A DNA stretch of 64,000 bases from a virus. Lineage: Duplodnaviria > Caudoviricetes. This document shows positions 233 through 44,772 of this stretch, piece after piece. The first letter of the stretch is position 1. Each line of letters begins with the position of its first letter. Under the pieces are notes generated by a model. The model worked only from the letters and a program-made list of their open reading frames with translations, had not been told where the DNA came from and searched no databases. The position numbers and the translations under genes are program-made. The stretch lies in the IMG/VR virus record IMGVR_UViG_3300028887_000070, positions 167,847 to 231,846 of that record; one strand, written 5' to 3'.

Positions 233-241
233 CAAAAAAGA

Positions 242-266
242 AGGGGTGGCAGTGCTGACCACCCCT
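242..266. terminator. bidirectional intrinsic terminator hairpin
   Basis: AGGGGTGG-N9-CCACCCCT between convergent genes, with an A-tract on the left and T-rich sequence on the right. Confidence 0.7.
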
Positions 267-282
267 CCTCTTCTTGTATTAG

Positions 283-729
283 TTACATTGCTACTTGAAC
301 GAATTCGTCCAAGTTACAATCGTAACTGAGCAGTTCAACTATTTCTTCATTACTCATTTCCATACCTTTGATATCTTTATACCATTCAAATTGTACATAC
401 ATTTTGTCAAGGATAGATGTGATATGATTGATAGCTTCGTTTCCTGTGTACGATTGTCTCTCAAATACAGCAGTCTTATCAAAGAAGTCTATTAAGTCCA
501 TTACTTCGCTGAAGAATGTGAAGTCGATCTCGTTTAAAGTTACTAAAGCATTTCTGATAACTCTTATATACTTTGCGTCGTTGTCATCATTTACTGATGC
601 ATCATCTAAGCTTGCACCGTTGTCATTTACTTCGTGCATTATCGTATCATACATTCCGCCCAGAAGTACAAAGAGTTCATATGCCTTACGGTCAACTATA
701 CTCTTCTTGATTATATCGCGTCTTAACAT
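283..729 (-). CDS. hypothetical acidic protein (148 aa) behind the conserved structured leader; candidate early/anti-defence gene
   Basis: ORF with own promoter/leader (730-886), flanked by terminators on both sides. Confidence 0.8.
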   Translation of the reverse strand: MLRRDIIKKSIVDRKAYELFVLLGGMYDTIMHEVNDNGASLDDASVNDDNDAKYIRVIRNALVTLNEIDFTFFSEVMDLIDFFDKTAVFERQSYTGNEAINHITSILDKMYVQFEWYKDIKGMEMSNEEIVELLSYDCNLDEFVQVAM

Positions 730-886
730 AAAGCCCTCGCTTTCATTGTTCCTACCCTAGCGGCTCCTACCTTTCCACTTAGGAGCATAGTCATTTGCTG
801 AGTAGCAAGCCAAGAACGTCAACCTTTGTTGAACTACTACCTTGACTCACTACAATGGTATACAGTCAAAACCATCTACTTTTACG
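730..886 (-). ncRNA. promoter plus two-domain structured 5' leader RNA, copy 1
   Basis: Collinear with 10163-10316; stem-loop domains at 807-848 and 752-805 with compensatory changes between copies. Confidence 0.7.
855..864 (-). promoter_or_regulatory. early-type promoter TGTATACCAT
   Basis: Matches the TRYATAnnAT motif recurring upstream of non-structural genes; CGTAAAAGTAGA box upstream at 875-886. Confidence 0.6.
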
Positions 887-897
887 CAACAAAAAAA

Positions 898-923
898 AGA
901 ACGGACCCGTTAAGGTCCGTTCT
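898..923 (-). terminator. intrinsic terminator
   Basis: AGAACGGACC-N6-GGTCCGTTCT followed by a T-tract on the minus strand. Confidence 0.8.
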
Positions 924-934
924 CTATCTTTGTC

Positions 935-3091: not shown

Positions 3092-3118
3092 ATAATATGT
3101 AACTAGGTTATATATTAT
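3092..3118. promoter_or_regulatory. divergent early-type promoter pair forming an inverted repeat
   Basis: ATAATATGTAAC-TAG-GTTATATATTAT; TACATATTAT on the minus strand and TATATATTAT on the plus strand, each followed by a 5' hairpin. Confidence 0.6.
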
Positions 3119-4498: not shown

Positions 4499-4549
4499 TG
4501 TATATAATAGGAGTGTCCTTAGGTAGCTTCTTACCTTAGGGACAACTCC
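4499..4549 (+). promoter_or_regulatory. early-type promoter TGTATATAAT with 5' hairpin (4510-4549)
   Basis: Motif match; GGAGTGTCCTTAGGTA...TACCTTAGGGACAACTCC stem. Confidence 0.6.
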
Positions 4550-9796: not shown

Positions 9797-9805
9797 GAAA
9801 TAAAA

Positions 9806-9828
9806 AAGAACCCCCTATGGGGGTTCTT
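9806..9828. terminator. bidirectional terminator
   Basis: AAGAACCCCC-tat-GGGGGTTCTT between convergent genes. Confidence 0.8.
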
Positions 9829-9841
9829 ACTTCTGACTGAA

Positions 9842-10162
9842 TCAGCACTTGCTGACAAGCCAGAAGTTTATTGTTGCACCTTCTGGGAGCGTTGTAGCTC
9901 CCTCAGGCAGTCTCGGCCCAGTATACTGAGCCACCAAAAGCGTCTCATCGGATGTGAGCTGTACGCTCATTCGATTTGGGTTTACCTCGATGCCAAGAAT
10001 GCCGCCTACAATGTTGGCGGTGTCATCATGGCCTATAGCTGATATTATATCATCAGCCTCTTTGATGAATGTTCGAGCAGTCTCTGTGGAGATCTGCTCG
10101 AAATTTACCTTTGCTGTACCAGACAGCATGTTTATCGAGAATGCATTTGTGATAATAATCAT
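9842..10162 (-). CDS. acrIII-1: DUF1874/STIV B116-like cyclic oligoadenylate ring nuclease (anti-CRISPR AcrIII-1), 106 aa
   Basis: NAFSINML, SAIGHDDTA (catalytic GH), NRMSVQL and RLPEG motifs typical of DUF1874; GAAAGGA RBS before ATG 10162. Confidence 0.85.
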   Translation of the reverse strand: MIIITNAFSINMLSGTAKVNFEQISTETARTFIKEADDIISAIGHDDTANIVGGILGIEVNPNRMSVQLTSDETLLVAQYTGPRLPEGATTLPEGATINFWLVSKC

Positions 10163-10316
10163 ATGACTATTCCTTTCATAGTTCCCGTTACCATATTCCT
10201 GGCCTTCCCCCAGGATCATAGTCATTGGCAACGACAAGTCAAGAACGTCAGCACTTTACTGAACTACTACCTTGACTCACTATAATGATATACAACTATT
10301 CGACTCTACTTTTACG
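10163..10316 (-). ncRNA. promoter plus two-domain structured 5' leader RNA, copy 2
   Basis: Collinear with 730-886; domains at 10236-10278 and 10185-10234; promoter TGTATATCAT at 10285-10294. Confidence 0.7.
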
Positions 10317-10323
10317 AAAGATA

Positions 10324-10348
10324 TCGGAGAGGGAACTTCCCTCTCCGA
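10324..10348 (-). terminator. terminator-like hairpin ending the head-protein operon
   Basis: TCGGAGAGGGAA-c-TTCCCTCTCCGA palindrome right after the stop of 10355-11803. Confidence 0.7.
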
Positions 10349-42615: not shown

Positions 42616-44772
42616 ATGATACCTATTTCAAACAAAGGTCTTACCATCTATAAGACTGAAATGAAAGAAGCATTGAGACTGTCTTTCCCAAGACTGTTCG
42701 ATGCAGATATTGATGCAGCTATAGACTACTCTATAGCCAAGAGATTCTCAGACACACCAGTGAGACTGGATAACAACTATACACATAATCAACAGGACAC
42801 CACACTCTATAATGTCTTGAACTACATCATAGAACGAGAACCCATAGTAACCGTATCTGGTGTTCTCTTTAAGAAGCATGGTACATGTCCTAACCCATAT
42901 GTAGATCTCATTCAGGAGTTCCTGACTAAGAGAGCTGAGTATAAGGGAATGATGCTTAAGTATCCTAAGGGATCTGAAATGTATGAGAAGTACAACCTCC
43001 TTCAGCTTTCTGAGAAGGTATCGGCGAATGCTATCTATGGAGCTAGTGGTAATCATACATCTATCTTCTACAACGTTAACGTTGCATCATCTATCACAAT
43101 GCAGGGTCAGAACTGTATTGCTACAGCTCTTCTGTTGTTTGAAGCTACACTTAACAACAACGTTAAGTTTGGTTCACTCAACGAGATCATACAGTTCATC
43201 AACAACGTTCGTCGTGAGAGACCTACTCGTAAGTATAATGACTATGATGTCATTGATATGCCAGTATCAGCATATGATGTATTCTGTCAGCTTATCTGTA
43301 CATGTGGTTTCTACTACAGACCTTCAGAAAAGGATCTAATGATTGTATGGGATATCATCAATCAGCTTGACCAGGAAGACCTTAACCGTATCTTCTTCAA
43401 GAACAACCTCTTCTACTTCTTCGATAATAAGTATGTAATGGATAAGGTTGTATACTTCCTTAGTCTGCTTCCGATACACTTCATGGATCCGAACAAAACT
43501 CCTAATGCTAAGGATATCTATGATGCTCTTAAGGATACCGATAACCCGATGACTGAAGAACAGGCTAGTCATCTTGCAGATCAGATCAAAGCAGCGCTTG
43601 ATGAAGTATATGAACTCGTTAAGGAGTATGTATACTATGGTCATCAGTATATGGATCGTCTCGACAGAGCAGAAAACATGGTTCGTTCGGTATCTATCCT
43701 TACTGATACTGACTCTTGTTTCATCAGCTTCGACGGATGGTATCGTTATCTTCTCGCTAAGACACTCAAGATTCCAATGAGGATTAAGGAGATCGAGCAG
43801 AATAATGAGGGTAAGGTATGGAGAGCAGACGTTCATTCATATGACTATGACTTCTTCAAGGATGAAGTTATCGATCTTCAGCAGACTCTGAGTGATGATA
43901 ACTCTGTAGGTCCTACAGCAGGATATCGTTGTTCACTCATCAATGTGCTTGCTCACATTATGGGTCGTCTGTCGATTGACTATATGACAAGGTACTCAAC
44001 CAACTCCAATGCTATCAAGACGGCAGATGGTCAGATACGTAAATCATTCTTCATACTCAAGAACGAGTTCCAGCTTAAGCAGGCTCTCGTTACAATGGTA
44101 AAGAAGAACTACTGTTGTTATCAGGAACGTCAGGAGAATGCGTTCATTCCTCTTGAAGAAGCTCTCGATGTTAAGGGTATGCCTATCCGTAAGGTTGGAA
44201 TACCTGAAAAGACAGCAAGAAGAATTGAAGAAATCCTATGGTACTTCGTGCTCAATGCTGAGCAGATCTCTCAGATAGATATCATCAAACAGCTTGCTGC
44301 TCTTGAGAAGATGATCTATGACTCTCTCATGGCAGGTGATAAGAGCTACTTCAAGCCTCAGCGTATAAAGGCATCGTCTGGTTATGCGGATCCTATGGGA
44401 CAGTATACCATTAAGGCAGCTGTAGCATACAATCTTCTTAGAAGAGATAATGAGCCAATCATCGACCTTACTACACGTAACACAGTTCTGATCATCAAGA
44501 CGGATATGACAGAAAAGAATATCGATCAGATTAAGGATACATTCCCAGATGTATATGAGAGAGCAGTAAAGATGCTCACATCAAAGGACTTCAAGGGAGA
44601 GTGTGGTAACATTGCTATACTTTCTGAAGAAGATGTACCAGAGTGGGTTAAACCATTCATCAACTATACACAGGTTATCAATGATAACATTGCTACATTC
44701 CCAGTAGAAGCTCTCGGCATTGACAGACGAGAGAAAAAGAGCGTAAACTTCACTAACATTGTATCCCTGTAA
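42616..44772 (+). CDS. B-family DNA polymerase, catalytic (palm/fingers/thumb) subunit of a split phiKZ-type polymerase
   Basis: KVSANAIYG (motif B), LTDTDS (motif C), KKNY and DVKG; no N-terminal 3'-5' exonuclease motifs seen. Confidence 0.88.
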   Translation: MIPISNKGLTIYKTEMKEALRLSFPRLFDADIDAAIDYSIAKRFSDTPVRLDNNYTHNQQDTTLYNVLNYIIEREPIVTVSGVLFKKHGTCPNPYVDLIQEFLTKRAEYKGMMLKYPKGSEMYEKYNLLQLSEKVSANAIYGASGNHTSIFYNVNVASSITMQGQNCIATALLLFEATLNNNVKFGSLNEIIQFINNVRRERPTRKYNDYDVIDMPVSAYDVFCQLICTCGFYYRPSEKDLMIVWDIINQLDQEDLNRIFFKNNLFYFFDNKYVMDKVVYFLSLLPIHFMDPNKTPNAKDIYDALKDTDNPMTEEQASHLADQIKAALDEVYELVKEYVYYGHQYMDRLDRAENMVRSVSILTDTDSCFISFDGWYRYLLAKTLKIPMRIKEIEQNNEGKVWRADVHSYDYDFFKDEVIDLQQTLSDDNSVGPTAGYRCSLINVLAHIMGRLSIDYMTRYSTNSNAIKTADGQIRKSFFILKNEFQLKQALVTMVKKNYCCYQERQENAFIPLEEALDVKGMPIRKVGIPEKTARRIEEILWYFVLNAEQISQIDIIKQLAALEKMIYDSLMAGDKSYFKPQRIKASSGYADPMGQYTIKAAVAYNLLRRDNEPIIDLTTRNTVLIIKTDMTEKNIDQIKDTFPDVYERAVKMLTSKDFKGECGNIAILSEEDVPEWVKPFINYTQVINDNIATFPVEALGIDRREKKSVNFTNIVSL

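Follow-up and report, generated by a model that had tools for sequence, protein, structure and literature searches.

The stretch of DNA considered here (the window, 64,000 nucleotides in length) is the last part of the 231,846-bp IMG/VR virus record IMGVR_UViG_3300028887_000070, hereafter G000, of which it covers positions 167,847 to 231,846, and it carries on its minus strand two copies of a block in which a promoter is followed by a leader of ~120 nt with two folded domains and then by a small gene. A first-pass annotation, made from the letters alone, had described these two copies (A and B; Table 1) as collinear despite unrelated genes behind them, and its coordinates and strand were confirmed. 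When aligned, the copies agree at a mean column identity of 79% from an upstream promoter box through GAAC(A/U)AUGAAAG, the similarity ends at the start codons, and the two genes, P0001 and P0002, are mutually unrelated. The window contains exactly two occurrences of the 19-nt core GAGTCAAGGTAGTAGTTCA, where 0.07 would be expected.

P0001 received no Pfam, PHROG or Atlas assignment. P0002 matched the Pfam family PF08960 (STIV_B116-like/DUF1874) with 57.3 bits against a cut-off of 26, aligned with the PDB entries 2x4i (SIRV1 gp29), 2j85 (STIV B116), and 6scf, and has kept the IGHD motif; it is a predicted member of the AcrIII-1 ring-nuclease family, and no close relatives of it were found in viral contigs. 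The claim that one copy heads an anti-CRISPR gene is borne out by this family assignment of P0002, and the wider claim that the leader controls early counter-defence genes stands for P0002 only, the other genes having no assignable function. Among the latter is P0003, the gene behind a third copy (C), which had no usable Atlas match. At the locus of copy C in a related record, G001, an additional open reading frame (ORF) of 110 aa (L018 1542–1874, minus strand) lies between the leader and a homolog of P0003 with 23% identity, and this ORF is a putative example of the capture of a gene behind an existing leader.

Searching the genome and its relatives for further copies added one in G000 and three in other contigs, so that six copies of the full ~120-nt leader are known, three of them in G000. 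Domain 2 by itself, combined with a different domain 1, recurs in three longer leaders that follow the same type of promoter (E in G001, F at ~43.1 kb of G000, and F′ in a second relative, G002), where its helices have wholly different sequences, and a scan for the core of domain 2 matched only members of the family. The leader model R1 had no match in nine other viral records drawn from pattern scans, which were mostly jumbo phages with the same promoter type and included G002, and nothing significant was found with it in a 251,042-bp viral record of AR9’s published size (E 0.49). Scans of sequence collections with short conserved words returned mostly chance matches, with true copies only in G001 among the viral contigs and in L253 and L258 among the metagenome contigs. 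The leader family is real but narrow, being present in about five contigs, all of them from gut or rumen-type data. No model of Rfam 15 reached its gathering score anywhere in the window, and the matches at E ≤ 10 were terminator-driven and lay outside the leader, with no ribozyme or riboswitch model among them. The first-pass description of an unrecognised cis-regulatory RNA family agrees with this lack of a relevant Rfam match and with the strand-specific, covarying fold of the leader.

When the copies were folded singly, they returned the same two-domain architecture (in eight copies for domain 2) from helices that differ in sequence. Across the six full copies, 96.9% of the cells in the pair counts are standard pairs and seven pairs are changed on both sides; none of 500 shuffles reached the observed values, and sliding the partners by 1–3 columns reduced pairing to 36–49%. 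The outer helices of domain 2, which MAFFT failed to align, are documented by the independent folds. Covariation had been proposed from copies A and B, where the listed stems do pair and differ by compensatory changes, and it extends to the additional copies. The outer stem of domain 1 comprises 9 bp, is paired at 100%, and includes three G-U pairs, its only variation being of the G-U to A-U type; because the conserved G-U pairs would be A-C mismatches on the opposite strand, the fold is specific to the transcribed strand. The inner hairpin of domain 1 occurs as UCAAC/GUUGA, UCAGU/GCUGA, and UCAGA/UCUGA, with two pairs changed on both sides.

In domain 2, the outer helix has at least five different sequences (beginning CUACUCAGC, CCACUGCUC, UCGUUGCC, GGAUGCA, and GCUGUA). 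This helix is followed by an internal loop with 10–11 nt on the 5′ side (consensus AAWNNYUAUG) and by an inner hairpin whose base, UCC/GGA, is fixed and whose distal part reads UA/UA, UGG/CCA, CG/CG, UGC/GCA, or UG/CA, capped by a loop of purines (GGAAAGG, GGGAAGG, or AAGGAGAA). Two both-side changes in the inner hairpin separate the orthologous copies A and H.

The two loops that the first-pass annotation had called invariant are so between copies A and B only. Copies A, B, and H have UAGUAGUU as loop 1, copy C has UAAUAGAU, copy D AUAAGAGUU, and copy I UAAAAGAU, and the internal loop changes from GACUAUG to GUUUAUG in copy H. These changes, which affect loop 1 in copies C, D, and I and the internal loop in copy H, have no compensating change on the other side, and for that reason the proposed loop-loop pseudoknot (GUAGUU/GACUAU) was rejected. 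Two candidate reading frames within the leader were likewise discarded. An upstream ORF starting at the conserved AUGAAAG is contradicted by copy H, in which the AUG is ACG, and by the peptides, which share only MK; the GAAAGG of this block more plausibly belongs to the predicted Shine-Dalgarno (SD) site, as its 5′ portion. A peptide starting from the AUG inside CUAUG would have frames and stops that differ among the copies, and the changes in the 3′ arm are compensatory.

The source of the window is an uncultivated rumen jumbo phage that is distantly related to the Bacillus phages AR9 and PBS1. G000 contains two matches to Rpb2_6 (RNA polymerase beta-type) and one beta′-type match; the best isolate matches of its beta-like protein are PBS1 and AR9 at ~31% identity, followed by Staphylococcus phage S6 and its relatives and Yersinia phiR1-37. 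The two sets of multisubunit RNA polymerase subunits that characterize the AR9-type early promoter system are thus found in G000. Ribosome-binding sites are strong and of the AAAGGAGG type genome-wide, and from these sites and the kinship with AR9 the host is probably Firmicute-like. Nearly all of the window was recovered in public sequencing runs of bovine gut metagenomes. Of the two relatives used for comparison, G002 is complete and 89% identical to G000 over 208 kb, and G001 is a 122.5-kb record that is ~84% identical.

Every copy of the leader is preceded by the same layout, which consists of the box CGTAAAAGT, 13 nt, the core TGTATAYMAT, 6 nt, and a G, and the claim that the structured leader follows a phage promoter is supported; a sigma70 −35 element is absent at the leader promoters. 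In AR9, early promoters have the consensus AAATATATATTAT-N6-G(+1) and are read by the injected virion RNA polymerase, and of the 41 early starts that have been mapped, about nine also have an upstream box, cCGTATtAAAA (PMC5312081, text and Table S2). Counted on both sequences, 20 nt separate CGTA from the TATAT core, in AR9 as in the leader promoters. The early promoters predicted in G000 resemble those of AR9 in an AT-rich core followed by six nt and a G at the predicted +1, in a CGTA box in a subset of the promoters, and in the long 5′ untranslated regions (UTRs) behind them, and both phages encode multisubunit RNA polymerases; the promoters differ in the core itself, which is AAATATATATTAT in AR9 and TGTATAYMAT or TATATATTAT in G000. 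We infer that the leader promoters are of the AR9 virion-RNA-polymerase early type, resembling the AR9 consensus without being equal to it. Because the promoter layout parallels that of the AR9 early promoters, the predicted +1 (G848 in copy A, G10278 in copy B) coincides with the base that opens the domain 1 stem, and this holds for the predicted position in all copies.

The motif T[AG]TATAYWAT-N6-G occurs at 28 sites in G000. To characterize the transcripts predicted to begin there, the first 50 nt were folded, and a hairpin was counted when its minimum free energy (MFE) was ≤ −9 kcal/mol and it started within nt 1–3; 3000 random G-starting sites served as controls. Such a hairpin was found at 17 of the 28 sites compared with 19% of the controls (odds ratio 6.4, p = 2e-6), and a 5′-terminal hairpin is therefore a general trait of the predicted early transcripts, of which domain 1 is one instance. 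The sites include 4820 (−), 63396 (+), 110331 (+), 114663 (−), 122156 (+), 135247 (+), and 172345 (+) of G000, the last of which is position 4499 of the window; 170955 (+), at position 3109, also lies within it. Those that start with a hairpin are usually followed by a short UTR and then a AAAGGAGG ribosome-binding site.

Leaders as long as the one described here are found only behind promoters of the CGTAAAAGT subclass. This subclass also drives longer multi-hairpin leaders of ~200–260 nt at 43124 (−) and 33420 (−) of G000, with orthologs in G001 (L198/L203) and G002 (L202). A weaker promoter of the same type lies at 127913 (−), and its leader contains a hairpin and U-tract (AACCCA...UGGGUUCUUUUUU) ahead of the SD site, which could be a 5′ UTR attenuator. 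Other jumbo phages of ~220 kb use a promoter of the form GTAAAAGT-N13-TGTATATAAT (L204, L205, and L210, which are one 218.7-kb record, as well as L206, L216, L217, and L222), and they have multi-copy structured leader families of their own, which are ~170 nt long, start with GAGUARGAGAUARUA, contain AAAGCUAUGYUCC, and had no Rfam match.

At the DNA level, the promoter, leader, gene, and terminator form a cassette that comes and goes between close relatives. Cassettes A and B are precisely missing from G002, in which the flanks are contiguous at both sites; each cassette starts at the C of CGTAAAAGT, right after the T-tract of the upstream terminator, and ends in its own terminator, and the junctions share TTCTTTTTTGT-like terminator tails. 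Further cases come from other rumen samples. A DNA contig of run X5 joins position 286 to 896 and is without cassette A. A DNA contig of run X3 retains 740–959, comprising the leader and promoter, with 286–739 replaced by 450 other letters, and the break falls exactly after AUGAAAG, at the 3′ edge of the leader; the same run has 236 other letters in place of 9808–10323. In run X6, the match of a contig to the window ends at 847, the predicted +2. Between the orthologous cassettes A and H, identity is 96% in the promoter, 83% in the leader, and 71% in the coding sequence. At its edges, the promoter-leader module acts as a boundary of recombination, in the way that PeSL (promoter-early stem-loop) motifs do in T4-type phages. 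Contigs from a bovine metatranscriptome library cover the gene and leader of both cassettes at 100% identity (440–834 and 9898–10247), a coverage that fits transcription starting upstream of the domains; they stop short of the predicted +1 (848 and 10278) and do not cover the promoter, an observation that is neutral, as contigs cannot show ends.

Rumen strains also vary in the region beside cassette A (959–1855 and 2457–2473). In one DNA contig, 131 other letters stand in place of 960–1854, and small indels cluster near 2460, which suggests that this region is hyperplastic.

Table 1. Genes, promoters, leader domains, leader copies, cassettes, and terminators. Coordinates are those of the window unless a record is named; promoters, transcription starts, RNA folds, and gene functions are predictions.
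Feature	Location	Strand	Description
Gene P0001	283..729	−	148 aa; ORF list and translation
Gene P0002	9842..10162	−	106 aa; predicted DUF1874/AcrIII-1 (viral ring nuclease) family
Early promoter A	849..886	−	box CGTAAAAGT at 886..878, 13 nt, core TGTATACCAT at 864..855, 6 nt, predicted +1 G848
Leader A, domain 1	807..848	−	9-bp outer stem from predicted +1, loop UAGUA, inner hairpin UCAAC/GUUGA; MFE folds
Leader A, domain 2	752..805	−	outer helix of 6 bp and 3 bp separated by a bulged A; internal loop with 10 nt on the 5′ side, ending in CUAUG; inner hairpin CUCCUA/UAGGAG with purine loop AGUGGAAAGG
Leader A, tail	730..751	−	conserved GAACAAUGAAAG (751..740), then the gene’s own Shine-Dalgarno GAGGG
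Early promoter B	10279..10316	−	box CGTAAAAGT at 10316..10308, 13 nt, core TGTATATCAT at 10294..10285, 6 nt, predicted +1 G10278
Leader B, domain 1	10236..10278	−	outer stem from predicted +1; inner hairpin UCAGU/GCUGA
Leader B, domain 2	10185..10234	−	8-bp outer helix UCGUUGCC/GGUAACGG, internal loop AAUGACUAUGA; inner hairpin UCCUGG/CCAGGA with loop GGGAAGG
Leader B, tail	10163..10184	−	GAACUAUGAAAGG, containing Shine-Dalgarno AAAGGA, then spacer
Copy A	886..730	−	followed by P0001
Copy B	10316..10163	−	followed by P0002 (predicted AcrIII-1 family)
Copy C	G000 129281..129122	−	followed by P0003, another orphan gene
Copy D	G001, position orthologous to copy C		the first gene behind it is a different one, with a distant homolog of P0003 next
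Copy H	metagenome contig L258		followed by an ortholog of P0001, 69% identical
Copy I	metagenome contig L253		truncated copy
Cassette A (moron)	240..887 (G000 168086–168733)	−	promoter, leader, P0001, own terminator
Cassette B (moron)	9797..10316 (G000 177643–178162)	−	promoter, leader, P0002, terminator
Intrinsic terminator of the gene upstream of cassette A	896..925	−	13-bp stem and T run; kept in G002
Intrinsic terminator closing cassette B	9806..9828	−	10-bp stem and T run
Terminator of the upstream gene, immediately before promoter B	10324..10348	−	terminator scan; kept in G002

Morons of tailed phages are transcription units with their own promoter and terminator that are inserted between genes, and the cassettes described here resemble them in having one gene with its own promoter and terminator, placed between a terminator and the next gene and missing from a close relative. 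Classical morons are without a common structured leader, whereas these cassettes are morons of which several share one promoter-leader module. In the PeSL cassettes of T4-type phages, terminator/early-promoter motifs bound indels of small genes (PMC2839356, PMC4122927). The likeness to the leader cassettes is twofold, in that the small non-essential genes of variable regions are flanked by repeated terminator/early-promoter motifs, and that indels and replacements between close relatives are bounded by the motif; here, each promoter has a terminator immediately before it, and the junctions of the indels fall in the terminator tails or in the box. PeSL cassettes differ in having sigma70-like promoters, a stem-loop that is itself the terminator, and a T4-type lineage, whereas the leader cassettes combine a promoter of the predicted AR9 virion-polymerase type with a ~120-nt covarying two-domain leader.

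Two groups of RNAs invite comparison with the leader itself. The DUF1874 RNA motif, which by description comes closest to the leader among published RNAs, has multiple stems and a conserved internal loop and is located upstream of DUF1874 and other small genes, and its presence in consecutive intergenic regions gave rise to the proposal of an attC-like role (PMC5737381). Like the leader, it occupies the 5′ UTR of DUF1874-family genes and other small ORFs in a cassette-like arrangement. Its model, RF02953 (93 positions, gathering score 42 bits), had no match at E ≤ 10 in the whole 231,846 bp of G000, so that by this model the leader is not a member of the DUF1874 motif. In Bacilli, a hairpin at the 5′ end, a ribosome-binding site that lacks a start codon, or a protein bound near the 5′ end stabilizes the mRNA downstream, the standard examples being the aprE leader and the cryIIIA STAB-SD (PMC3997798). 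The leader shares with these a stem-loop at the (here predicted) 5′ end and an SD-like sequence in the UTR without a start codon; it differs in having no sequence or structural homology with them and in presenting the SD-like sequence in the hairpin loop of a larger conserved domain. Taken with the cassettes, the leader is a real RNA motif outside of Rfam that is carried on mobile cassettes, and it is a variant of moron/PeSL cassettes and probably of structured 5′ stabilizer leaders.

The explanation that we favor, at somewhat better than even confidence, is that the leader would act as a portable 5′ mRNA stabilizer and expression enhancer on cassettes of early genes. Under this explanation, the virion RNA polymerase of the phage would read the promoter, as in AR9, and start at the G that opens domain 1, such that the transcript would begin with a fully paired 5′-terminal stem-loop and domain 1 would sequester the 5′ end. 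Domain 2 would present, on top of a stable stalk, a purine-rich loop (GGAAAGG or AAGGAGAA) that is SD-like but is not followed by a start codon, and the two domains together would block 5′-end-dependent decay and keep a 30S subunit, or some other factor, close to the 5′ end. Any small accessory gene behind the module, such as that of the putative AcrIII-1 ring nuclease, could then be expressed right after infection, and in the DNA, cassettes would be shuffled through the homology that the promoter-leader block and the terminator tails supply. Of the three roles that the first-pass annotation had offered (riboswitch-like, ribozyme-like, or RNase-protective), the RNase-protective one fits best, and no conserved feature of a riboswitch or ribozyme was found. 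If the proposal is true, the jumbo phage equips captured accessory genes, anti-CRISPR genes included, with a ready-made early promoter and protective leader, and the same block doubles as the homology by which genes are shuffled between strains; it would also represent a compact, transferable expression element for Firmicutes.

Several points weigh against this explanation. The pair counts come from six full copies and three further sequences on about five contigs, in an alignment fitted to the model; the +1 is placed by analogy with AR9 only, whose core differs from TGTATAYMAT; and the RNA-library contigs show neither strand nor ends and come from a library that may contain DNA. The argument from Firmicute-type RNases draws only on the AAAGGAGG SD sites and the kinship with AR9. 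Most other early transcripts manage with a single short hairpin, and therefore domain 2 must add something further. A plain stabilizer also leaves unexplained the conservation of AAWNNYUAUG and GGAAC(W)AUGAAAGG beside helices that change freely, a combination of conserved unpaired blocks and changing helices that is also expected of a specific binding site.

Because a stabilizer leaves these two blocks unexplained, a specific site for a protein or ligand was retained as a rival, although we consider it rather unlikely. The leader would in that case be an operator or riboswitch-like sensor in which AAWNNYUAUG, the purine loop, and GGAAC(W)AUGAAAGG bind a phage or host protein or a small molecule and thereby switch translation or stability, in the manner of T4 RegA, which shuts off early mRNAs later in infection. 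The conservation of unpaired regions between covarying helices speaks for such a site, as do the overlap of the last conserved block with the ribosome-binding region, the GGA both in the hairpin loop and at the SD site, as in two-site CsrA-type targets, and the restriction of long leaders to the CGTAAAAGT subclass of promoters. No expression platform was seen, however, in folds and terminator scans: no terminator or U-tract follows the domains, no conserved helix sequesters the SD site or the AUG, and the mean unpaired probability of the SD window is 0.42–0.51 in all five copies folded. The sequence of loop 1 and, in part, that of the internal loop differ from copy to copy, no CsrA homolog was found in the phage, the Rfam search at E ≤ 10 gave no riboswitch or leader match, and the genes served are unrelated, with no common metabolite logic evident among them. 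A bolder version, in which the leader is a new regulatory RNA class of AR9-like jumbo phages whose pocket for a factor or nucleotide serves as a common on/off switch for early anti-defense cassettes, seems distinctly unlikely; were it true, the switch would be a plug-in module carried along with each newly captured gene.

It is very unlikely, in our estimate, that the block acts on the DNA level only, as a recombination module (PeSL-like homology or an attC-like single-stranded DNA site) whose folded RNA has no function beyond that of the promoter. Gain, loss, and replacement of cassettes do break at the edges of the block, and the DUF1874 motif is arranged like cassettes in consecutive intergenic regions (PMC5737381), but homology-driven recombination would not need the compensatory changes that keep four helices, the conserved G-U pairs tie the fold to the transcribed strand, orthologous cassettes differ less in the leader than in the coding sequence, and the breakpoints lie at several places (the box, +2, and after AUGAAAG), as expected of homology edges rather than of one crossover site. 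The conserved CTTGRCTTG and TATGAT might instead be the −35 and −10 elements of an embedded host sigma-A-type promoter and not RNA features. Copy B has TTGACT-16 nt-TATGAT (10 of 12 matches) at 10242..10215 on the minus strand, where it overlaps domain 1 in the 3′ arm and domain 2 in the internal loop, and copies C and D read TTGGCT-16 nt-TATGAT; yet copy A scores only 8 of 12, which is below calling, CUAUGRUCC is kept in copies E and F although they have no −35, and such matches are at chance level in the region (four found, 1.9 expected). With the compensatory 3′-arm changes downstream of the “−10” left unexplained and RNA-library contigs reaching upstream of the site, we regard such a promoter as highly improbable. 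Least credible of all is a self-cleaving ribozyme or processing site that trims the 5′ leader, for which the compact multi-helix fold and conserved junction nucleotides might speak; no Rfam ribozyme matched at E ≤ 10, and no ribozyme-like core was indicated, in a comparison limited to the Rfam scan.

The early transcripts of AR9 have long 5′ UTRs with an unexplained motif (PMC5312081), and the leader described here adds a structured RNA motif to this group of phages. Apart from the cassettes, the two ends of the G000 record (~737 and ~231588) are near-identical in sequence, which points to a terminal repeat or to circular permutation of the assembly, although the record is classed as linear.

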